A stretch of DNA of 64,000 nucleotides. Source: an uncultured delta proteobacterium (GTDB lineage: Bacteria; Myxococcota_A; Polyangia; Polyangiales; Polyangiaceae). Under the pieces are notes generated by a model, which was given only the letters and a program-made list of their open reading frames with translations, did not search any database and was not told where the DNA came from. Below, piece by piece: positions 21,873 to 64,000 of the stretch (its first letter is position 1; each line of letters starts with the position of its first letter). The DNA is taken from NCBI GenBank assembly GCA_963827955.1, contig CAWHDJ010000018.1:1245297-1309296 (forward strand). Direction: 5' to 3'. Position numbers and translations under genes: made by a program.

Positions 21873-23303
21873 GTGACCCTCGTGAGTAGCCCGATCTCCG
21901 CCGTCGCGTCGCGCCTCGCGCTGTTGCTCCCTCTTTCCATCCTCGCGGGCGCCTGCCGCGGCGAACCCCCCGCGCAGCCACGCCTCGGGTTCAGCACGAC
22001 GCAGCCGGGCGGGCTCCGCACCGCGCACCCGCGCGGCTTCGGCGTCGGGGTGTCCCGTTCGCTCGACCGCGAGGCCGGCCCCGAGGCCGGCGCGAGCTCC
22101 ACGGTCGTCGACCGCGCGCGAGAGAGCGTCGTCAGCGTGATCGCCGGGCACCCGGCGGGGCCGCACGGCACCGTCACCGAGAAGGGATCCCCTCCGCGCG
22201 AGCACGCGCTCGGCTCCGGCTTCGTCCTCACGTCCGACGGGCTCGTGATGACGAGCCGCCACGTCATCGACGGCGCGGACGACGTCAGCGTGCAGCTCGA
22301 CGACGGGCGGTTCTTCCCCGCGGCGATCGTGGCGCGCGACGCGCTGCTCGACATCGCGCTGCTCAAGCTCTCGGGCGCGCACGAGCTGCCCGTCGCCACG
22401 CTGGGCGACAGCGGCGCGATGCGCGTGGGCGACCCCGTGATCGCGATGGGCAACCCCTTCGGCCTCGGGCCCAGCGTCCGGCGCGGGATCCTGAGCGCGC
22501 AGGCGCGGGAGGTCGACGAGGGCCCGCCGGGCGAGTTCCTCCAGACGGACGCGGCCGTGAACCCCGGCGACAGCGGCGGGCCGCTCCTCGACGCCGGGGG
22601 GCGGGTCATCGGCATCGACACGGCAATCGTGGAGCACGGCCAGGGCCTGAGCTTCGCCATCCCCATCGACGACGTGCGCGTCGTGCTCGACGAGCTCGGT
22701 CCACCGGCCGCGTGGCCCGCGGCCACGTCGGCGTCACCTACCAGGCGGTGGACGCGGCCCTGGCCCGCGCGCTCTCGCTCCACTCCCCGGAGGGCGCGCT
22801 CGTGACGGAGGTCGAGAGCGGCGGCCCGGCCGACCACGGCGGCCTGCGCCCCGGCGACCTCATCACGTCCATCGACGCGGTGCCCGTGAAGACCCCGGGC
22901 GACCTGTCGCACGACCTCGAGCGGCGCAAGCCGGGCGAGGCCATCCTCCTCGGCGTGCTGCGCGCCGGCACCCCACCGCGGGCTCGGCTTGCTGCTCGAC
23001 CGGATGCCCAACAAGGACGGCGACGCCGAGGGGAAAGCGCCGCCGGCTCACCTCTCCGGGGGCGCGGACGGGATCCGGCTCGTCGACGCCGACGGAGGGG
23101 TGCGTGTCGACGCGCTCGACGCGAGCACCACCGCCGCTGACGGCCTCCGGCCCGGCGACGTGGTGCTGGAGGTGAACCACAAGCCGGTGCGGCGCGCGGC
23201 GGAGGCGCTGAAGCAGATCTCGTCGACGCCGCGGCCTGGGGCGGCGCTGCTCCGGGTGAAGCGGGACGGGGAGTTCCTCTACGTGGGGATCGATGTGAGC
23301 TAG
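21873..23303 (+). CDS. htrA: HtrA/DegP-family serine protease with two PDZ domains. The frame breaks at least twice.
   Basis: Catalytic triad context HVIDGADDV… DIALLKL… GNPFGLG…GDSGGPLLD. PDZ1 (GALVTEVESGGPADHGGLRPGDLITSIDAVPV) and PDZ2 (LRPGDVVLEVNHKPVRRAAEALKQI) lie in different frames. Confidence 0.75.
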
Positions 23304-23453: not shown

Positions 23454-24627
23454 ATGACTTCGAAGACCTCCTCCCTCCCCGGCTTCCGCGACCTCGACCT
23501 CGCCGCGAGGCGCCGTGTGCTCGGCGAGCGCGGTCCGAATCCCGGCGGGCGAGCTCGACGCGGCGCTCGAAGGCGGCGGCCTCTCCCCGGAGACGGCCGA
23601 CAAGATGATCGAGAACGCCATCGGCACCCTGGCGCTCCCCTTCGGCGTGGCGCTGAACGTCCGCGTCAACGGCGCCGACTACCTCGTGCCCATGGCCATC
23701 GAGGAGCCGAGCGTCGTCGCCGCCGCCTCCCACGCCGCGAAGCGGGTGCGCGCGGGCGGAGGGTTCACGGGCGTCGCGGCCGAGCCGCTCATGGTCGCGC
23801 AGATCGAGGTGCACGACGTGGCCGATCCGGCGGGCGCGGTGGCGCGCATCGGCGTGGCGCGGGCGGGCTCCTGGAGATGGCGGCGCGCGCGGTGCCGGGG
23901 ATCGTCGAGCGCGGCGGCGGGCCGAGGGAGATCGCCGCGCGTGACCTGGGCGAGGGCTTTGTGGTGGCGGAGGTGCTGGTGCACGTCTGCGACGCGATGG
24001 GCGCGAACACGGTGAACACGGTCGCCGAGGCGCTCGGCGAGCGGGTGGCCGAGCTCGCCGGGGGCACGCTCGGGCTGCGCATCCTCAGCAACCACTGCGA
24101 CCGGCGCGTCACCTGCGTGACGGCGCGCGTCCCCGTCGCGGAGTTCGGCTGCCGGCGCGCCGCCGGGGCCGAGGCCGCCGCCGGCGTGGCGAGCGCCTCG
24201 CGCTTCGCCGAGCTGGATCCGTACCGCGCCGTCACCCACAACAAGGGCATCATGAACGGCGTGGACGCCGTGGTGATGGCGACCGGCAACGACTGGCGCG
24301 CTGTCGAGGCGGCGGCCCACGCGTACGCGGCGCGCAGCGGCGTCTACCGCCCGCTCGCGACGTGGCGTGTCGTCGAGGGCGGCGCGGTGCTCGAGGGGCG
24401 GATCGAGAATCCCGCTCCCGCTCGGCACGGTGGGCGGCGCGCTCCGCGTGCACCGCGGCGCCCGGCTCGCGCTCGAGCTGCTCGGCATGCCCTCGGCCGC
24501 CGAGCTCGCGATGGTTGCGGCGGCCACCGGGCTCGCCAGCAACCTGGCGGCGCTCCGCGCGATGGCCACGGAGGGCATCCAGCGCGGCCACATGGCCCTC
24601 CACCACCGCACGACGACGGCTCCGTGA
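23454..24627 (+). CDS. mvaA: Class II (bacterial-type) HMG-CoA reductase. It spans three frames.
   Basis: ENAIGTLALPFGVALN…, CDAMGANTVNTV, THNKGIMNGVDAVVMATGNDWRAVEA, GHMALHHR: the conserved HMGR motifs. Confidence 0.75.
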
Positions 24628-26842: not shown

Positions 26843-27930
26843 ATGTCGCAGAGCCGCTTCGCGCCGCTCCTCCGGGAGGACCTCGCCGAGCTCCGCTCGT
26901 ACGAGCCACGTGCCGGCGCCTTCGCCGTCCGCCTCGACGCCAACGAGCCCCCGTCCCTGATCTCGCCCGAGGCCTCGGCCGCGCTCGCCCGCGCGATGGT
27001 CCCCCCGGCCTGGAACCGCTACCCCGACGCCCGCGCCACCGAGCTGCGTGCCGCCATCGCCGCCCGCTGCGACGCCTCGCCGGAGGAGGTGCTCGTGGGC
27101 ATCGGGTCGGACGAGGTGATCGCGCTCCTCCTGACGGCGCTCTGCCGCCCGCAGGGGAAGAACCCGGCGCCCGTCGTGCTCGCGCCCACGCCGACCTTCG
27201 TCATGTACCGGCTCAGCGCCCGGGCGCGGGGCTTCAAGGTCGTGGAGGTCCCCCTCGACGCGGCGTGGGACCTCGACGTCCCGGCGATGCGCCGCGCCGT
27301 GGAGCTGATGCGCCCGAACCTCGTCTTCCTGGCCACGCCGAACAATCCGACGGGTCAGCGCATGTCCCTCAATCGGCTGGAGGCGGTCGCCGCCGCCGCT
27401 TCCTCTGCGCTCGTCGTGATCGACGAGGCGTACGTCGACTTCGCCCAACAGAAGCAGATCCACCTCCGCCGCGCGTGCCCCAACGTCGCCGTCCTCCGCA
27501 CCCTCTCCAAGATCGGCTTCGCGTCGCTCCGCGTGGGCTGGATGATCGGGCCGGCGAGCTCGTCGCCGAGATCGACAAGGTGCGCCAGCCCTACAACCTC
27601 CCCGTCCCCGTGCAGCGCGGCGCCCTCCACGTCCTCGAGCACATGGGGGACGAGGTCGCGCGCGCCTGCGCCGCCGTCGTGGCGGAGCGCGAGCGGCTCG
27701 CGGCTGGGCTCGCCGCGCTCGGGCTCGGCGTGACGCCGAGCGACGCCAACTTTCTCTGGGTCGAGACGAAGGGGCCGGCCGGCGACGTCTGCGAGGCGCT
27801 CGCGTCCCGCGGCGTGCTCGTCAAGAGCTTCCACGCGAGCGGCGGCCGGCTCCTCCGGCGCCTGCGCATCACGGTCGGGCTCCCCGCCGAGAACGACCGG
27901 CTGCTCGAAGGAATCGCGCGGTGCGCGTAG
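26843..27930 (+). CDS. hisC: Histidinol-phosphate aminotransferase family (class II PLP aminotransferase). It has a frameshift near 27545.
   Basis: RLDANEPP…, ATPNNPTGQ, LVVIDEAYVDF, LRTLSKIGFASLRVGW (PLP-Lys context). About 360 aa. Confidence 0.6.
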
Positions 27931-29378: not shown

Positions 29379-31872
29379 ATGAGCGAGCGAACGGAGCCGG
29401 CGTGGCTCGACTTACTGGGCATCGCTTTGCTCGCAGCGGTCTACCTCGGCCTCGCCCGGCTGGGGCTCGCGATGGACGCCATCGGGGGGTTCGCGACCCT
29501 GGTCTGGGTGCCGTCGGGCATCGCGCTCGCCGTGATCCTGAGGTTCGGGCGTCGCCTGTGGCCCGGCGCCTTGATCGGCTCCTTCATCGCCAACCTGCTC
29601 TCCGCCGCGCCGGTCCCGGTCGCGCTCGCGATCGGCGCCGGCGACGCGATCGAGGTGCTGACCGCCGCCCTCCTGCTCGAGCGCGCCTGCTACCGCCCCG
29701 CGCTCGACCGCCCGCGCGACGTGCTCGCCCTGGTCGCGTTCGCCGCGTTGCTCGCGTCCGCGCTCGGCGCCTCCATCGGGGTGCTCGCCCTGCTCGCCGG
29801 GCGCGTCCTCCCGGCGGCGACCGCCGCCGTCGCCTTTCGCGCGTGGTGGCTCGGCGACGCCGCCGGGATCCTCGTCGTGACGCCGCTCGCGTCCGTCGGC
29901 TGGGCGCACCTCCCCCCGCTCACGGTGAAGCGCGCGCTCGAAGCGGCCGGCGTGCTCGCGGCGCTCTTCGCCGTCGCCGCCTTCGTGTTCTTCGGCCCGG
30001 GCCCGCAGCCCTCGCCGTTCTGGCACCCGTACCTGGTCTACCTCGTGCTCCTCTGGGCGGCGCTGCGCTTCGGCCAGCACGGCGCGACGATGACCGTCTT
30101 CTTCGCCGCGCTCCTGGCCATCTGGGGGACCGCGACGGGCCACGGCCCCGCGCTCCGGCCGACGCTCCACGAGAGCCTCGCCAACCTCCAGCGATTCATG
30201 GTCGTCTTCGCGGTGACGGCCCTCTGCCTCGGCGCCGTCATCGTCCAGCTCCAGCGCGTCTCGGTGGAGCGCGCGGGCCTCCTCGACGCGCAGCGGGAGG
30301 CGCTCGCGCGGATCGGCGCCGCGGAGCAGCGCGGGGCGCTCCTCGCCCTCCTGCTCGACCAGTCGAACGACGCCGTCGTGGTCCGGGAGATCGGGGACGG
30401 CATCGTCTACTGGAACCAGGGCGCGGAGCGGCTCTACGGCTTCTCCGCCGGCGAGGTGCGCGGCAAGACCTCGCGCGCGCTCCTGCACACCGAGCTCCCG
30501 AGCGGGCTCCCCATGTCGAGCGTCGACGCCGCCCTCGTGGCCGACGGGCACTGGGACGGCGAGCTCTTCCAGACGACGCGCGACGGGCGCAGGCGCTGCG
30601 TCGAGAGCCGGCAAGTGCTCAGCCGCTTCGGCGACGGGCCGGCGCTCGTGCTGGTGACGAGCCGCGACGTCACGGCGCGCAAGGAGGCGGAGGCGGAGCG
30701 GGAGCAGCTCCTCGAGAGCGAGCGCGCGGCGCGTGGCCTCGCGGAGCGGGAGGCGCGCAGCAAGGACGAGTTCGTGGCCACGCTCTCGCACGAGCTTCGC
30801 ACGCCCCTCAACGCCATCCTCGGCTGGGCCTCGATGCTCCGCGGCGGGCGGCTCGACGCCGAGGCGTCCGCGCGGGCGCTCGAGACCATCGAGCGCAACG
30901 CGCGCGCCCAGGCGCAGATGGTCGAGGACCTGCTCGACGTGAGCCGGATCGTCTCGGGCAAGCTCCGCGTCGACGTCCGGCAGATGAACCTCTGCGAGGT
31001 CGTCGAGGCCGCGATCGCGTCCCTCCAGCCGGCCGCCGCCGCCAAGCGGATCCGGATTCGAGCGGGTGATCGACCCGCTGGCGTGCGAGGTCGAAGGCGA
31101 CCCGGCGAGGCTCCAGCAGGTGGTGTGGAACCTCGTCGGCAACGCGATCAAGTTCACCCCGAAGAGCGGGCACGTGCGCGTCGTCGTGCAGAGGTCCGGC
31201 TCGTACGCGGAGGTCGTCGTGCGCGACGACGGCCCCGGGATCGCCGCCGAGTTCCTCCCCCACCTCTTCGAGCGCTTCCGCCAGGCCGACGCATCGAGGA
31301 CGCGCCGCCACGGCGGCCTGGGCCTCGGGCTCGCGCTCGTGAAGCACCTCGTGGAGATGCACGGCGGCACCGTCGGCGTGGAGAGCGAGGGCGAGGGGAA
31401 GGGGGCGACGTTCGTCGTCCGCCTGCCGATCTGCCCCGTGGTCTCGCGAGGCACGGAGCCCAGCGCGCCGGCGGTCCGCGAGTCGCTCAAGGGGGTGAAG
31501 GTGCTCGTGGTGGACGACGAGGAGGACACGCGCGAGCTCGTCCGGCGCGTGCTGTCGGAGAGCGAGGCGGAGGTCGTGGCGGTCGGCTCCGCCGCCGAGG
31601 CGCTCGACGAGGTGCCGCGCTTCCGCCCCGACGTGCTCCTCAGCGACATCGGCATGCCGCACCAGGACGGCTACCAGCTCCTCCGCGCGCTCCGGGCGCT
31701 CGGCGAGGACCGGGGCGGCAAGACGCCCGCCGCCGCGCTCACCGCGTACGCGCGCCCCGAGGACCGCCTCCACGCCCTCCGCGCCGGCTACCAAATCCAC
31801 GTCCCCAAGCCGGTCGACGTGACCGAGCTCTGCACCGTGGTGGCGAGCCTGGCGGGGCGCATCTCGACATGA
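29379..31872 (+). CDS. Hybrid sensor histidine kinase (MASE1 membrane sensor, PAS, HisKA, HATPase_c, receiver). It has a frameshift near 31060.
   Basis: Seven or more TM helices at the N-terminus. H-box LSHELRTPLNAILGW. G-boxes in the second frame (DDGPGI…GGLGLGLALV). Receiver with D (VLLSDIGMP) and K (IHVPKP). Confidence 0.75.
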
Positions 31873-37372: not shown

Positions 37373-37585
37373 CTAAATCACCGAGCACGATCCTCGTTCA
37401 AGGAGCCGGGAGCAACGTATGGAACCCCGGGCGTGAGCCCGCGGACCGGAGCCGCGCGCGTCAGCACGCGGAGGCCGCGGCACAGCCCCTGACGTCATGG
37501 TCCCCGCGCTCACGCGCGAGGCTCCGGTCCGCGGGCTCACGCCCGTGGGTTCCATCGTTGTGTCAGGATCGCACTCGGTGATTTA
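37373..37585. repeat. MITE-like palindromic element, family 1, copy 2
   Basis: About 97% identical to 2472..2687 over its whole length, with the same TIRs and inner stem. Confidence 0.8.
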
Positions 37586-37595
37586 GCATCCGAGC

Positions 37596-39483
37596 ATGCT
37601 TATCCGACGACGACTGCTTCGCCTCGCGCCGCTTGCCGCGCTCGTCCTCCTCATCCCCGCCGCCTGTGGGGGAACCGCGCAGCAGCAGGAGGGGACGGCG
37701 GGGGCGGGGGGAGCGAGGGGAACGGGGGGAGCGCCGGGGACGGGGGGAACGGGGGGACAGGGGGAGCGTCGCCCTCCGGGGGCGACGGTACGTCCTGCGC
37801 CCACGCGGTCGACATCACCGAGAGGGTCGCCGGAGGCGCCACCTACACCGGTCGGGCGACGGCGGACGGCGACTTCCAGGGACTCTGCGCCTCGCAGAAG
37901 GGCAGCATCGAGTACCTCCGCTTCGACGCGAAGCCCGGCAACTACCGGATCTCCCTCTCCGGCACGAGCGACGACACGGCCCTGACCGCCGTGCTCGACG
38001 TCCGGACCGACTGCGCGTCGTCCGCGAGCGAGATTGGCTGCGACCCCCACGCGGTGTCTCCCCCACCCTGGTCGGCGTGGACGAGGCCGGCCCCGTCTTC
38101 CTCGTGCTCTCGGGCGACTGGTACGGCAAGGGGTACGAGATCCGCGTCGAGCCGGCGATGCCTTGCACCGCCGACTACGACTGCACCCAGAGCTACCCAG
38201 AGACCCTGTGCGACACGACGACCGGGGCCTGCTACGCGCCGCTCGCCTGCGCCGCGGGCACCGCGGACTGCGACGCCAATCCGGACGACGGGTGCGAGAC
38301 CGACACCACCAAGGACACGGCGAACTGCGGCGCCTGCGGCGTCTCCTGCCAGGGCCCGAACGTGAAGAGCGGCACGTGCGCGGCCTCGTCCTGCGCGCTC
38401 ACCTGCGACACCGGCTACGCGGACTGCGACGAGCACCCCACGAACGGGTGCGAGACCTACCTCCTCGGCGACGGCGCGAACTGCGGTGCCTGCGGACACG
38501 ACTGCATGCACGGCGGCTGCGCGGCCTCGATCTGCACCGCGCCCCCGGTCGCGCTCGGCACGACCAGCACGGTGGCCCCGAACGGCCCCGTCGCGCTCGA
38601 CGCCACCAGCGTGTACGTCGCCGGAGAGCTCACCCAGAACATGGGCGGAGTGATCTCCGTCCCCAGGTCGGGCGGCGCCGCCACCCTGCTCGTGAACGAC
38701 GACTGCAACGTCGCATCTCTCGTCGTCGACGCGACGACGGTCTACTGGGCCGGCAGGGACTGCAACACGGTCGACGCGGCGATCAAGTCGGCGCCGGTCG
38801 CGGGCGGCGCGACGACGGTGCTCGCGAGCGACCAGGTCTACGAGCCGGCAGGGCTCCTCGCGGACGCGACCACCCTCTACTGGTACGACGCGGTCATCGA
38901 AGCGATCCTCTCGCTCCCCAAGGCCGGCGGCGAGCCGAGCATCCTCGTGGGCGTGCAGAAGAACGGCGGCGCGGCGGAGATCCTCGGGCTCGCCGCCGAC
39001 GCGACGACGCTCTACTTCACGACCGCGGACGACATCGCGAACACGTGGGAGTCTCCTCCATCCCCAAGTCCGGCGGCGCGCCCAAGACCCTCGCGCCGCT
39101 CCCGCCGGGGTCCTCCGGGCAGCTCGCGATTCTCGGGCACGGACCTCTACGTCGCCACCGACACGAACATCGCCCACATCTCGACCACGGGCGGCTCCCT
39201 CACCCCGTTCACCAGCGCGAACCTGGGGTCGGCCGACCCCTCCTTCACGCCGGCGGTCACCTCGATGGCGATTGCGGGCGGGAACCTCTACTGGTCCGCG
39301 GGCGCCACCAGCGCCATCGCGCTCTGCCCGACCCCCGGAGGCATCTGGAGGATCCCGCTCGCCGGCGGCCCCGCCGTCGGGCTCGCGAGCGACGAGTCCC
39401 CCGGGCCCATCGCGGCCGACGCGAGCGGCGTCTACATGAGCGCGACCTGCTCCGGCGCCGTGGCCCTCCACGCGGGGCCCTAG
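37596..39483 (+). CDS. Secreted lipoprotein, tandem paralog 1. Domain order: PPC-like beta-sandwich, Cys-rich DCD…DGCET repeats, C-terminal beta-propeller. It spans three frames.
   Basis: MLIRRRLLRLAPLAALVLLIPAACGG; …CETDTTKDTANCGACG…; propeller blades ATTVYWAG / ATTLYWYD / GTDLYVATD / GGNLYWSAG. Confidence 0.7.
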
Positions 39484-39502
39484 CGTGCGCTAGCCTCCGA
39501 TC

Positions 39503-41321
39503 ATGTCTTACGGAAAATCCTTTCGCTGCCTCGCTTCGCTGGCCGCGCTCGCCTTCCTCGTCCCCGCCGCCTGCGGGGGCAACGCCAACCAGAACGGGAC
39601 CGGGGGAGGGCCCTCCGGGGGCGACGGCACGTCCTGCGACCAGGCGATTGACATCACCGAGGTGGTCGACCGCGACGGCACCTACTCCGGCCAGGCGACG
39701 GCGACCGGCAGCTTCGACGGACTCTGCGCCTCGCAGAAGGGCAGCATCGAGTTCCTCCGCTTCGACGCGACGCCCGGCAACTACGAGATCACCCTCTCCG
39801 GGTCGCACGACAGCGCGGACGTGAACGCCGTGCTCGACGTCCGGACCGACTGCACGTCGTCCGCGAGCGAGATTGGCTGCGACCCCCACGCGGTGTCTCC
39901 GCCCACCCTGGTCGGCGTGGAGAAGGCCGGCCCCGTCTTCCTCGTGCTCTCGGGCGACTGGTACGGCAAGGGGTACGAGATCCGGGTCAAGCGGTCGCCA
40001 AAGTGTACCGCCGACTACGACTGCACCGCGAGCTACCCAGAGGCCCTGTGCGACACGAAGACCGGGGCCTGCTACGCGCCGCTCGCCTGCGCCGCGGGCA
40101 CCGGGGACTGCGACGCCGACCCGAGCGACGGGTGCGAGACCGACATCACCAAGGACCCGGCGAACTGCGGAAACTGCGGCGTCCACTGCAAGGGCCCGAA
40201 CGCGACGGGCGGCACGTGCGCGGCCTCGTCGTGCGTGCTCGCCTGCGACAGCGGCTACGCGGACTGCGACAAGGACCCCGTGAACGGGTGCGAGACGTAC
40301 CTCCTCGAGGACGGCGCGAACTGCGGCGCCTGCGGAAAGGACTGCGTGCACGGCGGCTGCCAGGCCTCGACGTGCGGCGCGCCCCCGGTCGCGCTCGGCA
40401 CGACCAGCATCGTCTCCTCGAACAGCGGCATCGCGGTCGACGCCACCAACGTCTACGTCGCCGGACAGTTCGACGCGAACACGGGCGGGGTGCTCTCCGT
40501 CCCCAAGGCGGGCGGCGCCGCCAAGGTGCTCGTGAACGACGACTGCGACATCAATTCTCTCGTGGTCGACGCGACGACGGTCTACTGGGCCGGCACGGAC
40601 TGCAACACGGGCAACTCGGCGATCAAGTCGGCGCCGATTGCGGGCGGCGCGACGACGGTGCTCATGGACGACACGACCAACACCCAGTATCCGGCCGGGC
40701 TCATCGCCGACGCGACCACCCTCTACTGGTACGACTCGAACCAGGGCACCATCTACTCGATGCCCAAGACAGGCGGCGGTCCGCAGATCCTCGCGAGCCT
40801 GCAGGGCGGACAGCAGATGCTCGGATTCGCCGCCGACGCGACGACGCTCTACTTCACGAGCGGCGACTACTGCGTGGGCACGGCGGAGCTTCCAATCGGT
40901 GCCCAAGACGGGCGGCAACCCCGAGAACATCGCGCCGCTCCCGGCGGGGTCCTCCGGGCAGCTCGCGATCTCGGGCACGGACCTCTACGTCGCCACCGAC
41001 ACGGACATCGCCCACATCTCGACCACGGGCGGCTCGCTCACCAAGCTCACCAGCGCGCACCTGGGGCCGGCCGACCCCTCCGTCACGCTGACGGTCACCT
41101 CGATGGCGATCGCGGGCGGGAACCTCTACTGGTCCGAGGGCGCCACCAACCCCTCCGTGTTCTGCCCGATCCGGGGAGGGATTTGGAAGATCCCGCTCGC
41201 CGGCGGCGCCGCCGTCGGGCTCGCGAGCGAGGAGTCCCCCGGGCCGATCGCGGCCGACGCGAGCGGCGTCTACATGAGCGCGACCTGCTCGGGCGCCGTG
41301 GCCCTGCGCGCGGGGCCGTAG
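39503..41321 (+). CDS. Secreted lipoprotein, tandem paralog 2 (same architecture). It has one frameshift near 40880.
   Basis: MSYGKSFRCLASLAALAFLVPAACGG. It is about 75-85% identical to paralogs 1 and 3 in the Cys-rich and propeller regions. Confidence 0.7.
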
Positions 41322-41477
41322 CCTGGCAGCCCATTGAAATACGAAAGAAGAGGACCGCAAGGGACGCAAGGGACGCAAGGATTCAGGTCAATTTGCCTTT
41401 CCCTTGCGCCCCTTGCGCCCCTTGCGCCCTTGCGGTCTCTCTCGGGTTTCTTCAGCGAGCTGCGCTAGGCTCCGATC

Positions 41478-43305
41478 GTGTCTTACGGACGATCCTTTCG
41501 CCGCCTCGCTTCGCTTGCCGTGCTCGCGCTCCTCGGCCCCGCCGCGTGTGGGGGCACCGCCAACAAGGAAGGGGGGGCGGGGGGAGGGCCCTCCGGGGGC
41601 GACGGCGCGTCCTGTGCCCAGGCGATTGACATCACCTCGGCGGTCGCCGGCGGCGGCACCTACTCCGGTCAGGCTACGGCGGAGGGCGACTTCCAGGGAC
41701 TCTGCGCCTCGCAGAACGGGAGCATCGAGTACCTCCGCTTCGACGCGGCGCCCGGCAACTACGAGATCTCCCTCTCCGGCCCCCACGACGACGCAGCGGC
41801 GACCGCCGTGCTCGACGTCCGGACCGACTGCGCGTCCTCCGCGAGCGAGCTGCAGTTGCATCCCCCACGCGCCGTCCACCAACATCTTCGTGGGCGTGAG
41901 CAAGCCCGGCGGCGTCCTCCTCGTGCTCTCGGGCGACTGGTACGGCAAGGGGTACCGGCTCCGGATCGAGCCGTGGCCGAAGAGGTGCACCGCCGACATC
42001 GACTGCGCCGGGCGCTTCCCGCAGACGCTGTGCGCCACGAAGACCGGGATCTGCTACGCGCCGCTCGACTGCGCCCCGGGCACGGCGGACTGCGACGCCG
42101 ATCCGGACGACGGGTGCGAGGCCGACACCACCAAGGACACGGCGAACTGCGGCGTGTGCGGCCTCTCCTGCCAGGGCCCGAACGTGAAGGACGGCACGTG
42201 CGCGGCCTCGGCCTGCACGCTCGCCTGCGAGCCCGGCTACGCGGACTGCGACACGAACCCCGCGAACGGCTGCGAGACGTACCTCCAGGGCGACGGCGCG
42301 AACTGCGGCGCCTGCGGAAACGACTGCACGCACGGCGGCTGCGCGGCCTCGAGTTGCACCGCGCCCCCGGTCGCGCTCGGCACCACCACCGCCCCGGACC
42401 CGAACGGCCCCATCGCGCTCGACGCCGCCAACGTCTACGTCGCCGGACAGATCAGCCCGAACATGGGCGGGGTGATCTCCATCCCCAAGTCGGGCGGCCT
42501 CGCCACCATGGTCGTGAGCGACGACTGCAACATCGCATCTCTCGTGGTCGACGCAGGGACGGTCTACTGGGCCGGCGCGGACTGCAATACGCTCACCGGG
42601 GCGATCAAGTCGGCGCCGATCGCGACCGGGGGGACGAAGGTCCTCGCGACCCAGAGCGTCTACAATCCGACCGGGCTCATCGCCGACGCGACCACCCTCT
42701 ACTGGCACGAAACGTCGTTGGGCGCGATCCTCTCGCTCCCCAAGGCCGGCGGCCAGCCGAAGGCCGTGGCGAGGCTGGTGGACAACGGCGTCGAGATGCA
42801 GGTCTCCGGGCTCGCCGCCGACGCGACGAACCTCTACTTCACGGCCAGGGACTACATCACGAGCACCTGGGCGCTCTACTCGGTGCCCAAGTCCGGCGGC
42901 GCGCACGAGGTGCTCGCGACGCTCCCGCCGGGGTCCTCCGGGCAGCTCGCGATCTCGGGCACGGACCTGTACGTCGCCACCGACACGAGCATCGCCCACA
43001 TCTCGACCACGGGCGGCTCGCTCACCACGTTCGCCGGGGCGAACCTGGGGTCCGCCGACCCCACCACCACGCTGGCGGTCGCCTCGCTCGCGATCGCGGG
43101 CGGGAACCTCTACTGGTCGGCGGGCGCGACCAAGGCCATCGCCATCTGCCCGACCCCCGGCGGGATCTGGAAGATCCCGCTCGCCGGCGGCGCCGCCGTC
43201 GGGCTGGCGAGCGACGAGTCCCCCGCGCCGATCGCGGCCGACGCGAGCGGCGTGTACATGAGCCAGACCTGCTCCGGCGTCTTCGCGCTGCGCGCGGGTC
43301 CGTAG
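41478..43305 (+). CDS. Secreted lipoprotein, tandem paralog 3 (same architecture). It has a frameshift near 41850.
   Basis: MSYGRSFRRLASLAVLALLGPAACGG. The C-terminus …GIWKIPLAGGAAVGLASDESPAPIAADASGVYMSQTCSGVFALRAGP is shared with the others. Confidence 0.7.
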
Positions 43306-43351
43306 CCCTATATAAGGAGGGGCGTACAGCGACGCTGGAATCGGCGGCGCG

Positions 43352-43810
43352 GGGGATCGGATCGGACACGCGCGTGATCCGATCGGCGGCACTTCCGATC
43401 GGATCGACGGCACGCTCGATCGGATCGGGGGCGTCCTCGATCGGATCGACGGCGTGCTCGATCCGATCGGAGGCGCGCTCGATCGGATCGACGGCGTGCT
43501 CGATCCGATCGGAGGCGCGCTCGATCGGATCGACGGCGTGCTCGATCCGATCGGAGGCGCGCTCGATCGGATCGGGGGCGTCCTCGATCGGATCGACGGC
43601 GCGCTCGATCGGATCGACGGCGCGCTCGATCGGATCGAGACCGTGTTCGATCCGATCGTGAGCGCGTTCGATCGGATCGGCGACGTCTTCGATCGGATCG
43701 AACGCGCCCCCGATCGGATCGGTGATCTGTTCGATCGGATCGGCGGCATCTTCGATCCGATCGAAGGCGCGACCGATCGGATCGAACACGGTTTCGATCG
43801 CACCTCGCGC
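43352..43810. repeat. Tandem array of about 22 copies of a 21-bp unit (consensus ctcgatcggatcgacggcgcg). It is open in all six frames and rich in CGATCG palindromes.
   Basis: Visible 21-bp periodicity. On the plus strand it reads LDRIDGV / LDPIGGA heptads, on the minus strand DPIERAV heptads. Confidence 0.85.
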
Positions 43811-46513: not shown

Positions 46514-48302
46514 TCAGCCCCGGCCCTTCAGGTTCAGGAGCGTGAGGCGCTTCTTCAGCGCGCTCGGGGAGACGCGGAGGAGCTTCGCGGTGGCGTCGAG
46601 GTCCCCGCCGGCCTTGGCGCGCGCGCGCGCGATCTCTTCGGCCGTCAGAATCGGTCGCGCGCGGCAGGCCGAGGTCGTCCATCAGCTTGATGAGCGTGGT
46701 GCGCGACGTGCCGAGCGTGGCGGCGACGCCGCTCTGGTTGAAGTCGTGCGCCTCGAGCAGGCGGAGGAGCGCCTCGGCCGCGGCCGCGCGGAGCTTCTTG
46801 GCACGGACCTGATCCTTGGCCCCGTCCACCTCGGCGGCGAGCGCCGCCAGCGCCTCGGCCGGCAAGAGCTTCAGCACCGTCTTCTGGGCCAGGCCGAGCG
46901 TCTCCGAGGCGGCGCGGAGGAGCGCGTCAGGGACCGGGGCCGAGGCGGCGGCGTCTCCCCCTGCGGGAGGCGGGGTGGTGGTGGGCGCGTCGGCGGAGAC
47001 GGGCGCGACCTCTCCCGTGGTGAGTGCGGACGCGGCGGGCGCATCCGGAGCCTGGAAGGCGCCGGGCTGGAGGTTCATCCGCGCGGTGCGCTCCACGTAG
47101 TTCTGAAGCTCGCGGACGTTGCCGCTCCAGGCCCGCCGGATCAGGTCGGCCATGAACCCGATCGGCATCCCCGGCTTCCACGTCCGCCCGCTGTCCCAGA
47201 GCCAGGCGAGCTCGCGGTGCTCGTCCACGTGCCGGCGGAGCATGTGCACGACCAGCTCCGGCACGTCCATGCGGCGCGCGGAGAGCGAGGGCACGTGGAG
47301 GACGTGCGCGGACATGCGGTGGTAGAGATCCTCCCGCAGGCCGCCGTCGCGGACCTGCGCATCGAGGTCGCGGTGGGTGGCGGCCACGACGCGCACGTCG
47401 ATGTGGCGGCCCTCGTGCGCGCCGACCGGGACGACAACGCCGTCCTGGAGCACGCGCAGGAGCTTGGGCTGCACGGCGATCGGCAGCTCGCCCAGCTCGT
47501 CGAGGAAGAGGGTGCCGCCCTCGGCCGCGCGGAAGAGGCCCTTGCCCTCGGCGTCCGCGCCGGTGAACGCGCCCTTTTTGTGCCCGAAGAGGACGGCCTC
47601 GACGAGCGTCTCCGGCAGCGCGGCGCAGTTGACGGCGACGAAGGGGCCCGCGGCCCGCGGGCTCGCCTGGTGGATGGCGCGGGCGACCAGCTCCTTGCCG
47701 GCGCCGGTCGGGCCGATGACGAGCGCGGAGCCGCCGAAGCGCGCGACGCTCCGGATCTCGTCGCGGAGCGCCCACATCGGCTCGCTCTCCCCCACGAGGC
47801 CCATGCGGTCGTCGTCGGGCGCGTGGACGCGGGACAGCTCCAGCCCGAGGAGCACGCGGTCGCCGATGGCGACGACGGCGCCGGGATCGACGATCGTCGG
47901 GCCGGTGATCGGGGTCATGACGGGGGTGTCCGAGCCGGCATGGTCGAGGTCGACGAGCCCGAGCTGGCGGCGCGCGCCGGGGGCCGGCTCGACCTCGAAG
48001 CGCCGGCGGTCGGCGAGGAAGCGGATGCGGAGCTGCTCGCGGCTGACGTGGGGATCGGCGAGCGGGAGGGTGGCGCCGCCGAGGCCGCCGAAGGGGGGGA
48101 CGTTGCGCCCGAAGGTGATCCAGCGGGGGCCGACGGCGCCGGGCATCGAGAGCGCGCCAACGCGGTTGAGATCGCTGTGGTAGAGCAGGCGGACGCGCGC
48201 CTGGAGCTCGTCCTTGTGGTGACCGTACGCCCACGCGGACCAGCCGTCACGGTTGGATGCGTCCCGGGTCTCCGTCTGGATGTGCGTGTCGCCGCTGCCC
48301 AT
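46514..48302 (-). CDS. Sigma-54-dependent transcriptional activator with an N-terminal FHA domain. It has a frameshift near 46680, which hides the true stop.
   Basis: FHA (ITFGRNVPPFGG…REQLRIRF), AAA+ (GPTGAGKE…GAFTGA…), and a C-terminal HTH recovered in the alternative frame (…LKKRLTLLNLKGRG*). Confidence 0.75.
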
Positions 48303-48326
48303 CGCTCCCTGGCAGCGTACCGTACA

Positions 48327-52176
<3,850 letters not shown>

Positions 52177-52180
<4 letters not shown>

Positions 52181-52644
52181 CGAGTGGCCCGCCGGAGCGC
52201 CGGCCGTCGCTCCCCCCTGGATGACGGCAGAGCACGGCCGGCCACGGCCGCCATCGTAGCCAAATCGGAGGGGACCGGCGCGGCAATCGGGCGCCGCGAG
52301 CCGGGGCGCTCAGTCCGCGGATCCGGGGGCTCCCCCACGTACGGTACCGGCGCCCTCGGGAACGTCGTCCGCGTCGCCACGTCCGTCACGGTGAGCGTCA
52401 CGAGCAGGAGGAAGAGGAACACGCCCAGGATGGGCATGACGGCCACCGAGAAGCGCTCCTGGGTGATGTGCATGAAGAAGATCGCGACCAGCGTCGTCTT
52501 CACCACGGCGATGAGGACGGCCACCGCCACGTCGGTCGGGCCGAGGTGCGCGAGCGAGAGCAGGAGCGAGAGGCCCGTCAGCGCGAGGAGGGCGAGCCAG
52601 ACGACGACGAGGCGGAGCGCGGAGGATGTGTGGGCGTGAGCCAT
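52177..52644 (-). CDS. Cytochrome c oxidase subunit IV-like small membrane protein
   Basis: Three TM helices. It lies immediately downstream of ctaE, as in caa3 operons. Confidence 0.5.
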
Positions 52645-61001: not shown

Positions 61002-63977
61002 TCACCCGATGTCCGGGTTGGGGTTGTCGATGCACGCGAGGTACACCGTGCGCGGGCGCGTCCCGAGCTCGTGCAGCACCGCGAAGGCCCGCGGCTCCTC
61101 GCGCCGCTGTACCATCTTGGTCTCCCGGTGCTTGAGCGATCCGAACTGGATGGCTCCCGTCGGACAGGCCTGCTGACACGCGGTCACCACCTCTCCCGGG
61201 CGGATGGCGCGGCCCTCGACGCGGGCGTGGATCTCCACCTCGCGGATCCGCTGCACGCAGTAGGTGCACTTCTCCATCACCCCGCGCTGGCGCACGGTGA
61301 CGTCGGGGTTGTGCTGGAGCGTGACGGAGCCCTGGTTTGCGGGCTCCCATTCGTTCCAGTCGAACCAGTTGAAGCGCCGCACCTTGTAGGGGCAGTTGTT
61401 CGAGCAGAAGCGCGTCCCGACGCAGCGGTTGTAGACCATCTCGTTGAGCCCGTCGGGGCTGTGCACGGTGGCGTTGACCGGGCAGACGTACTCGCAGGGC
61501 GCCTTCTCGCAGTGCTGGCAGAGCATGGGCTCGTTGACGACCCTCGGGTTGTGCACGTCGCCGTGGAGGTAGGTGTCGATCCGGAGCCAGAGCATCTGCC
61601 GGCCCTTCACGACCTGCTCCTTGCCCACGACGAGGATGTTGTTCTCGGCCTGGCAGGCGACGACGCAGGAGCTGCAGCCGGTGCAGATGGTCGTGTCGAT
61701 GGTCATCGCCCACTGCTCGCCGGTCTCGTCCACGGGCGAGAAGAGCGTGGGCTGGTCGCCGCGCAGCTCGGCCGTGAACTCGGGGTTGTACCGGTACTCG
61801 GCGAGCGTGGCGTGGAGCGCGATGGGGCGCTCGTCCACCGTGGTCAGCTCGAGCTGCGACCGCGCGAGCGCGTAGTGCTCACCCTTGCGCTTGCGGAGCG
61901 AGAGGCCCGGCGCGAACCACGGGGCGCGCGTCGTGCGCAGCAGGTACGCGTCGAACCCGATGGCCCTCTGCGACCGACTCGGCCGCGCCGCGCCGCCCCC
62001 AGCCCAGGTGGAGCGTGGCCGCGTCCTCCGCGTGTCCCGCGACGGTGAGCACCGGCGCGCGCACGCGTCCTCCCCGCGAGATCGAGGTCGACGACGTCCT
62101 CGTCCAGGAGCCCGAGGCGGGCCGCCGTCGCGGGCGCGAGGTGCACCGCGTTGTCCCACGTGAGGTGGGTGAGCGGCTTTGGGAGCTCGATGAGCCAGGC
62201 GTTGTTGGTGAAGCGACCGTCGTACACGTTCGGATCGACCGCGAACGACACCTCGAGCCCGCCGGCCGCCGGCGGCGCCGCGGGCATCTTCGCGAGCGCC
62301 GCGGCGAGCGGGGCGGCGGCGATGTCGTGATCCCTCCTCGGCGCGGCGCTGCCGGCGACGAGCCCACGCCGGAGCGCGTCCTCCCAGCGCGCGTCGAGGT
62401 CGGAGAGGCCTGCGCGGCGCTCCCACGATCGACGGAGCATGCGCCGCGGATCGGGATCGTCCTCTCCCGCGAAGAGCGCGAGCAGCTCCGCCACCGTGCG
62501 GCCCCCGTGAAGGGGCGCGATCAGCGGCTGGACGAGCGACGCCGTGCCGTCGTACGCCCGCGCGTCGGCCCACGACTCGAGGGCGTGCGCGGCGGGGATG
62601 AACCAGCCTGCGAGCGCCGCCGTCTCGTCCTCGTAGTCGCCGAGGTAGACGACGTCCTTCACCTTCGCGACGCGCGCGGCGAACTCGAAATCGGCGGGCG
62701 CGCTGTACGCAGGATTCCCCTGGACGACCACCAGCGTGTCGACGGCGCCGCGATCGATCTCGGCGACGAGATCCCCGAGCTTCCTGCTGCGCTTCGCCCG
62801 CGTCGACGAGCGTCGGGTCGATTGTCCACGCCGTGTCGTGGTTGCCCAGCGCGGCGTTCATCACGTGTCCCAGCGCGTGCACGATCGGGGGTTGCCGCGC
62901 CCCCACGGTCACCACGCTCGCGCCCGCGTGGCGGACGAGATCCTGCGCGATCGCCTGAATCAGAGGCTCGTCGGCGCCGGGCTTGAACCTCCCGAGCGCC
63001 GCCGTGATCTCCTCCGGCACGTGCCTGCCCGAGGCGGCGATGGCGGCAGAGATGCGCGCGGCGACGTGCGCGATCTCGCTCGGCCTCCGCGGGAGGCGGT
63101 GGTCCGCGACGCTGCCGGTCGGCGTCGGCATGGTCTCCACGACGTAGAGCCGGCTCATGTCCGCGTCCGGCGTCGCAGGCCCCCGCCGCTCCGCCCACGC
63201 GCGCGCGTAGGGGATGGAGAACGGGCCCGAGCCGAGGAAGTCGTCGTCGAGCGAGAGGACGCGGTACGCGCGGCGGAAGTCGTGGATCGGCTGCGCGGGG
63301 GCGCCGAAGGCGAGGCGTGCCCCGAGGGCGCGGTGGCCGCCGTCGGCGGGTGAGTGGAACGTGAAGCGCGCCGCCGGAAAGCGCGCGCGGAGGCGGTTCA
63401 CCAGGTCGCCGACGAGCGGGGAGCCGGTCGGCTCGAGGAGGAAGCGGAGCCCCGCGCCCCCGTCCGCGCGCCCGCCGGCGAAGCGCACGGCGAGCCCTGC
63501 CCACGTCGCCGCCGCGCCGCCCGGGGCGCGCATCGCGCGCGCGCGATCCGGGTCGTAGACGCCGAGCGCGGCCGCCTGGTCGAAGGCGGTGGTCGCGCCG
63601 AGGCTCGCCGGGTGATCGGGGTTGCCCTCGATCTTGATGGGCCGCCCGTCGTAGCTCTCGACGAGCACGCCCGTGGCGAAGCCGTCGAGGACGAGGCTCG
63701 TCGCGTAGACGCGGGGGACGCCCGGCAGGATGTCCTTCGGACTCCGCGTGAAGGGCAGGATCTTCTCCCCCCGCATGCGCGTGCAGCCGGCGAGCCCCGC
63801 GAGGGCCATGCTGGCCCCGAGGAGCTTCATCCACGCGCGCCGCGACGGGTCGGCGGGGACGCCCTCGGCCGCGAGCCGGCCGAGCTCGCGGAGGCTCGTG
63901 TTGGGGGCGGGGCCTCCGCCCTCCTCCGCATTATCGGGGCTGCCCACGACAGGGAGCGATTCTGTGTTTGAGGTCAC
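61002..63977 (-). CDS. actB: Alternative complex III subunit ActB (molybdopterin-oxidoreductase-like plus 4Fe-4S ferredoxin fusion). It spans several frames.
   Basis: Tat-like N-terminus (SRRAWMKLLGASMALAGLAGC). FeS clusters CTGCSSCVVACQAEN…CQHCEKAPCEYVCP…CVGTRFCSNNCPYKVRRF…CTYCVQRI…CQQACPTGAI. Confidence 0.8.
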   Translation of the reverse strand: MTSNTESLPVVGSPDNAEEGGGPAPNTSLRELGRLAAEGVPADPSRRAWMKLLGASMALAGLAGCTRMRGEKILPFTRSPKDILPGVPRVYATSLVLDGFATGVLVESYDGRPIKIEGNPDHPASLGATTAFDQAAALGVYDPDRARAMRAPGGAAATWAGLAVRFAGGRADGGAGLRFLLEPTGSPLVGDLVNRLRARFPAARFTFHSPADGGHRALGARLAFGAPAQPIHDFRRAYRVLSLDDDFLGSGPFSIPYARAWAERRGPATPDADMSRLYVVETMPTPTGSVADHRLPRRPSEIAHVAARISAAIAASGRHVPEEITAALGRFKPGADEPLIQAIAQDLVRHAGASVVTVGARQPPIVHALGHVMNAALGNHDTAWTIDPTLVDAGEAQQEARGSRRRDRSRRRRHAGGRPGESCVQRARRFRVRRARREGEGRRLPRRLRGRDGGARRLVHPRRARPRVVGRRAGVRRHGVARPAADRAPSRGPHGGGAARALRGRGRSRSAAHAPSIVGAPRRPLRPRRALGGRAPAWARRRQRRAEEGSRHRRRPARRGAREDARGAAGGRRARGVVRGRSERVRRSLHQQRLAHRAPKAAHPPHVGQRGAPRARDGGPPRAPGRGRRRPRSRGEDACARRCSPSRDTRRTRPRSTWAGGGAARPSRSQRAIGFDAYLLRTTRAPWFAPGLSLRKRKGEHYALARSQLELTTVDERPIALHATLAEYRYNPEFTAELRGDQPTLFSPVDETGEQWAMTIDTTICTGCSSCVVACQAENNILVVGKEQVVKGRQMLWLRIDTYLHGDVHNPRVVNEPMLCQHCEKAPCEYVCPVNATVHSPDGLNEMVYNRCVGTRFCSNNCPYKVRRFNWFDWNEWEPANQGSVTLQHNPDVTVRQRGVMEKCTYCVQRIREVEIHARVEGRAIRPGEVVTACQQACPTGAIQFGSLKHRETKMVQRREEPRAFAVLHELGTRPRTVYLACIDNPNPDIG

Positions 63978-64000
63978 CCACGCTGCATCTCTTTTCTCTG

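Follow-up and report, generated by a model that had tools for sequence, protein, structure and literature searches.

We have found that a stretch of 64,000 nucleotides (nt) from an uncultured delta proteobacterium of the Polyangiaceae (assembly GCA_963827955.1, contig CAWHDJ010000018.1, positions 1,245,297 to 1,309,296; hereafter the window) carries three head-to-tail paralogous genes, g1, g2 and g3. We think it likely that this trio is a recombining tandem array of genes for exported, probably lipid-anchored multi-domain binding proteins, and that the indels breaking its reading frames are errors. The array is laid out as follows.

37596-39483, forward strand: paralog g1, 628 amino acids (aa) once corrected, with four frame switches
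39484-39502, forward strand: g1-g2 spacer of 19 nt (CGTGCGCTAGCCTCCGATC), the leader common to all copies and to contig L004 of a close relative
39503-41321, forward strand: paralog g2, 605 aa with one base removed at about 40893
41478-43305, forward strand: paralog g3, 608 aa with one base removed at about 41857; GTG start

Over their whole length the copies are 82-85% identical in DNA in a three-way alignment and 69-73% identical in protein, and all three keep a G+C content of 0.6, 0.6 and 0.95 at the first, second and third codon positions (GC1, GC2 and GC3), in a window whose G+C is 68-78%. The 64-kb window holds no further paralog of these genes. The original prediction, made by a model from the sequence, had described three head-to-tail paralogs with spacers of 20-150 bp and a set of shared motifs, and this description agrees with what we find: the spacers measure 19 and 156 nt, the second holding a hairpin element of about 137 nt in addition to the leader, and DCD...DGCE...NCGxCG, ATTVYWAG, GTDLYVATD and GGNLYWS are all present. 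It also implied three intact genes of about 600 aa, which the sequence as given does not contain, since none of the three is a single open reading frame.

Six single-base frame switches, placed by three-frame translations and a codon-usage Viterbi frame tracker, interrupt the trio, four of them in g1 and one each in g2 and g3. Those of g1 lie in a G-rich tract at about 37700-37770, at 38062 (a run of five C, which is six C in L004), at about 39052 and at about 39131 (an extra T), and those of g2 and g3 lie at about 40893 and about 41857. At each of the six sites a run of 2-6 identical bases has changed in length. The deposited gene calls for the trio carry identical breaks, P0001 being a read-through of 708 aa and P0002 (468 aa) and P0003 (471 aa) being truncated at the N-terminus. 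Look-ups of the exact products of these gene calls, and of P0121 and P0122, gave no record. The switches are most likely assembly indel errors, because housekeeping genes of the window are equally broken and the frames of the close relative are intact. In the 64 kb the frame tracker finds about 20 more same-strand frame changes without a stop codon outside the trio, and translation of the pieces followed by a Pfam scan shows conserved domains to be split: HMG-CoA reductase over three frames (profile positions 20-114, 124-289 and 300-367), a class I/II aminotransferase over two (positions 4-231 and 237-361), a DegP-like protease, with its trypsin domain and two PDZ domains, into three pieces in two alternating frames, and a hybrid histidine kinase whose HisKA and HATPase_c domains stand in two different frames. 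These conserved genes have 6 breaks in about 5.9 kb, the same density as the 6 breaks in 5.6 kb of the trio. L004, a 1630-bp contig from Joint Genome Institute (JGI) metagenome sample 3300010396, has intact frames across 325 and 194 codons of two adjacent copies, and we infer that the genes of the trio are intact in vivo. Also broken in the window are the C-terminal end of a sigma-54 activator, a Ser/Thr kinase-ATPase and a molybdopterin oxidoreductase.

Frame-switch regions outside the trio, for example: 21984-23264, 23539-24615, 26843-27927, 30402-31830, 46521-48303, 48376-52190 and 62064-64000

If the frameshifts were instead real, the array could be the remains of a burst of duplication, its copies now decaying as pseudogenes. 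No copy is uninterrupted, and g1 is broken four times; the omega values of the trio (the ratio of nonsynonymous to synonymous substitution rates, dN/dS), at 0.3-0.7, are fairly high, and a miniature inverted-repeat transposable element (MITE) and the hairpin element have invaded the locus. We regard this as improbable, however, since indispensable-looking genes of the window are broken at an equal rate, no in-frame stop remains in the trio once the six single-base fixes are made, GC3 is still 95%, every Cys residue and blade motif is conserved, the relative's copies are intact, and omega is 0.27 between L004 and g3 and 0.10 for the C-terminal blades against g1.

A further possibility is phase variation, in which slippage in short homopolymer or G-rich tracts would turn these genes on and off as contingency genes. 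The first switch of g1 falls in such a place.

37691-37768, forward strand: G-rich 9/18-nt tandem repeat in g1 with four runs of six G, holding the first frame switch (Tandem Repeats Finder (TRF) and DNA alignment)

Because of this repeat the Gly-rich linker of g1 exceeds that of g2 and g3 by about 22 aa; the excess of 65 nt is not a multiple of three. A contingency locus would be expected to have a long simple-sequence tract with length variants. The g1 linker has only G6 runs and the 9-nt repeat, and the remaining switches are, like the first, length changes in short runs. Runs of 2-6 bases are nevertheless too short for efficient slippage, the housekeeping genes show breaks of the same kind, and four breaks in one gene do not make an on/off switch, so that we consider phase variation very improbable. 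We describe the proteins below in their corrected form, with the frame switches taken as assembly errors.

The corrected proteins have four parts: a lipoprotein-like signal peptide, a PPC-like N-terminal domain (N-domain), two Cys-rich modules and a beta-propeller. The approximate layout of g2 is given here.

Signal peptide: aa 1-24
N-domain: aa 43-168 (nt 39629-40006)
Cys-rich region: aa 169-295
Propeller: aa 296-605

The signal peptides end in V/I/G-P-A-A-C-G-G and are followed by a Gly-rich linker; the n-region, h-region and Cys are present in all three copies and in the wider family, which has canonical lipoboxes at the same place. We take the products of the trio to be exported and probably lipid-anchored. 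Each protein has two DCD-NGCE-NCGxCG Cys-rich modules (residues ~169-295), which are 45-54% identical to modules in hundreds of Polyangia and myxobacterial proteins. Such Cys-rich-repeat proteins of Polyangia (precomputed label Stig1, PF04885) resemble the trio in their lipoprotein-like N-termini and C-terminal propellers, although the trio, unlike the many-repeat proteins bearing this label, has only two Cys-rich modules and an additional N-domain.

The N-domain is, in the predicted model, a disulfide-containing beta-sandwich of the collagen-binding/PPC fold. AlphaFold modelled it with a predicted local distance difference test (pLDDT) score of 90.3 when given the family alignment, and the model has the beta-sandwich (jelly-roll) fold of the collagen-binding domain (CBD) of ColG/ColH and of PPC domains; its best structural matches include PliG and the claudin-binding domain of Clostridium perfringens enterotoxin. 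The label "PPC-like" in the original prediction is thus right at the level of the predicted fold, while the Pfam model is unmatched: PF04151 (PPC) was hit in one of five N-domain sequences (E = 0.05), short of the gathering score, and not at all in the full-length scan, and N-domain profiles found no match among the sequences of the Protein Data Bank (PDB). The differences from ColG/ColH CBD and PPC domains are that sequence similarity is marginal, that the trio domain contains four conserved Cys residues, and that PPC sits C-terminal to a secreted peptidase, whereas the trio domain is N-terminal, after the signal peptide and linker, in proteins with no peptidase domain. A profile search with the N-domain in 1.84 billion representatives returned about 20 proteins, 500-700 aa long, that carry the domain at an equivalent position; Cys-rich repeats come next in these proteins, and most have a propeller after them. 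Their alignment shows the four conserved Cys and the motifs IDIT, GNYRI, VRxxC, SExxC and GDWFxxGF. An ankyrin-repeat match in the hidden Markov model (HMM) search, P0252, was treated as spurious. Two distant family members, P0242 and P0243, are without a propeller and have a C-terminal PPC-like segment (DWFKF...YYLSV...Y.L.I) besides the N-terminal domain, a pattern that suggests domain shuffling within the family.

The propeller (residues ~296-605) is predicted with a pLDDT of about 90 and contains seven Y-W/V/F repeats. Its top Foldseek matches are the YWTD propellers of LRP2, LRP6, LDLR and nidogen (E 1e-9 to 2e-11); against the single-propeller entries 1ijq, 1npe and 7nam the TMt is 0.58-0.64. 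PF00058 and PF16472 are unreported for the trio, where Pfam gives only sub-threshold matches to SGL (14.4 bits) and Phage_RBD_prop (15.3 bits); distant family members carry PF16472 or PF00058 matches. On the strength of the model we assign the propeller to the YWTD (LDL-receptor class B)/DUF5050-like type. The LDLR family is also alike in placing small disulfide-rich modules beside a YWTD propeller. Unlike the canonical YWTD propeller, which has six blades, the trio has seven repeats and about 28 predicted strands, and its context is that of a bacterial lipoprotein, unlike that of LDLR, LRP2, LRP6 or nidogen. A literature search on DUF5050 returned no functional data. All parts of these proteins are typical extracytoplasmic binding modules.

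The other family members are labelled Polyangiales, Polyangiaceae, Minicystis and Byssovorax. Full-length homologs from outside this lineage are at best only 28-33% identical, which bears out the local tandem amplification that had been proposed. A first metagenome scan, with the N-domain as query, found nothing; a second, with the propeller as query, returned 76 loci, all 25-39% identical; the N-domain is missing from all of them, and at four of them two propeller genes lie side by side.

We present evidence that the copies are mosaics, a pattern in the alignments that points to gene conversion. The informative sites are near star-like (157 support g1=g2, 136 g1=g3 and 102 g2=g3) and clustered, the latter half of the N-domain, for example, containing an unbroken series of about 27 g1=g2 sites. 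The nearest relative changes along these head-to-tail copies, and this is seen again in L004. Over its first 600 nt the upstream gene of L004 is 90-95% identical to g3, including the most divergent blades, in which the paralogs are mutually only 58-89% identical; over its last 300 nt it is mostly closest to g1 (0.94 and 0.91, against 0.85 and 0.87 for g3), and in the final ~100 nt it is marginally nearer g2. The last ~35 nt of L004 (1596-1630, CCGTTTTTTTGGAGCGATGCGG...) diverge from the homologous Cys-rich region and are probably a chimeric contig end. The order in L004 is a g3-like gene, the 19-nt leader and a g1/g2-like copy, while in the window g3 is last. Either segments have moved between copies or the order or number of copies differs, and in either case the array is a recombining one. 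As L004 has a g3-like copy, the split of g3 from g1/g2 is older than the split of the two organisms, and the amplification is not recent, contrary to the original prediction. The g3-like blades are conserved in L004, with a maximum-likelihood (ML) omega of 0.27 against g3, and it follows that paralog-specific blades have been maintained.

The leader of g1 contains the MITE, and the statement that a MITE lies 10 bp upstream of the first paralog is confirmed.

37374-37585, no strand assigned: MITE including its TA flanks (element 37376-37583, 208 bp), ending 10 nt upstream of the g1 ATG
2473-2686, same orientation: second MITE copy including its TA flanks (element 2475-2684, ~210 bp), about 95% identical

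The whole element is a near-perfect hairpin of 208 nt (single-stranded DNA fold -98.9 kcal/mol, z = -14.8). In its size (~208 bp), its non-coding sequence, its terminal inverted repeats, its TA duplications and its two copies it resembles MITEs of the IS630/Tc1-mariner type, from which it differs in being one long hairpin throughout. Removal of the MITE with one TA restores a leader, GCGC-TA-GCATCCGAGCATG, like that of g2 and g3: the restored g1 leader (...GCGCTAGCATCCGAGCATG) and the leaders of g2, g3 and L004 (TGCGCTAGCCTCCGATCATG) match at 14 of the last 16 positions. Because of the TA duplications and of this restoration by deletion, we read the MITE as a simple insertion into the g1 leader. 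It had been suggested to mark the amplification boundary; no second copy flanks the array, and we see no indication that the MITE set off the amplification or bounds it.

The genes have diverged unevenly along their length, as had been expected: in 40-codon windows amino-acid identity ranges from 0.52 to 0.93. The identities by region are these.

Signal peptide: 54-77%
N-domain: 70-77%
Cys-rich region: 70-77%
First propeller blades: 59-65%
Last propeller blades: 74-82%

The original prediction placed the greatest divergence in the N-domain, but the first propeller blades are more divergent. With the NG86 and LWL85 methods dN/dS reaches 1.0-1.6 over the whole gene and about 2 in the central blades, values above 1 that arise because a GC3 of 95% deflates dS. 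ML estimates of omega (F3x4) are 0.30-0.48 overall, 0.54-0.69 for the central blades, 0.18-0.37 for the C-terminal blades and 0.32-0.74 for the N-domain. All are below 1, so that the proposed comparison of dN/dS by domain yielded no domain above 1, and the NG86/LWL85 values were rejected as a sign of positive selection. The estimates indicate that the trio evolves fast; positive selection is not demonstrated. The original prediction had seen here a recent amplification, perhaps bounded by the MITE, with diversification of a surface-exposed domain; spelled out, this would be positive diversifying selection on the N-domain, as in polymorphic adhesins. Although NG86 dN/dS values of 1.1-2.5, the binding-module fold of the N-domain and a MITE 10 nt from g1 speak for this, we hold it to be improbable: NG86 is inflated at this GC3 and the N-domain has an ML omega of 0.32-0.74, its divergence does not exceed the average of the gene and is greatest in the central blades instead, and the MITE is a TA-flanked simple insertion in the shared leader with no second flanking copy. 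The divergent blades, moreover, are 93% identical between g3 and the relative, which makes the divergence old and maintained rather than ongoing.

The recombining array that we favour was probably built by tandem duplication of a unit made up of the 19-nt leader and the coding sequence, with at least one duplication before the split from the nearest known relative. Segments would later have been exchanged among copies by gene conversion or unequal recombination, which would have homogenised the 3' blades and part of the N-domain and left the central blades paralog-specific yet conserved between orthologs. Both the MITE upstream of g1 and the hairpin element between g2 and g3 would have been inserted later. 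That the central blades are paralog-specific suggests that the copies may have different ligand specificities. Several points weigh against this account. The function as binding proteins is drawn only from analogies of fold, and scans of the corrected proteins with Pfam and NCBIfam gave no model at threshold. The lipobox-like PAAC that the original prediction called a shared lipobox is indeed in all copies but is non-canonical, with Pro at -3 where the lipobox pattern [LVI][ASTVI][GAS]C has L, V or I, and fails the PROSITE-type rule. That the indels are errors is a deduction, and by the frame tracker the trio has about one switch per 0.93 kb, more than the window average outside it of about one per 2.5-3 kb. 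Finally, the relative is known from one contig of 1630 bp, in which its copy number and gene order are incomplete.

Two further elements lie within or next to the array.

41324-41460, no strand assigned: hairpin element of ~137 nt, three copies of CGCAAGGGA facing three to four of CCCTTGCGC, between the g2 stop and the g3 leader
43340-43784, no strand assigned: 21-bp tandem array 3' of g3 (TRF), with palindrome copies at 43354-43784

The hairpin element (RNA fold -74.9 kcal/mol, z = -4.7) occurs once in the window and is lacking in the g1-g2 spacer and the L004 spacer; it could be a structure at the end of a transcript, or else a small mobile hairpin. The tandem array is built on an 11-nt palindrome, CGATC(G/C)GATCG, at a strict spacing of 21 bp, with 19 copies exact and 2 degenerate. 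The window has no other occurrence of the motif, the array lies outside the duplicated unit, and it is without a counterpart at other loci. Because the core is invariant, the 10-nt spacers vary and the G and C variants are mutual reverse complements, these features point to constraint at the level of DNA rather than to a coded heptad, possibly as protein-binding sites. The array is open in most frames, and coding is possible.

The flanking genes encode a fatty-acid desaturase, a Coq4-like protein (divergent from g1), an arylsulfotransferase-like protein and a sigma-54 activator, and they offer no clue to the function of the trio. A contig scan for synteny with the adjacent Coq4-like gene gave only distant cyanobacterial and planctomycete matches. 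A search with Rfam found no RNA family in the window, and a promoter and terminator scan gave nothing informative.

We note that an assembly with about one indel per 1-3 kb calls for caution over any claim of pseudogenes, fusions or split genes in this DNA, and that at 95% GC3 naive dN/dS comes out far too high. Large myxobacterial genomes commonly contain tandem duplications of secreted multi-domain proteins, and the array by itself is of little significance: it is an ordinary array of tandem, gene-converting paralogs of an uncharacterised exported protein family. The family itself, which combines a collagen-binding/PPC-fold domain for which Pfam has no model with Cys-rich modules and a YWTD-type propeller, is unannotated and could merit a family definition. 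A bolder reading, which we think unlikely, is that the locus is a recombining cassette in which the central blades, and possibly the N-domain, would set specificity for a ligand or prey surface, conversion and unequal crossing-over between copies would shuffle them among close relatives, and the palindrome array might bind a protein and act on the locus. If true, such a cassette system would be a myxobacterial analogue of variable adhesin or receptor-binding gene families.

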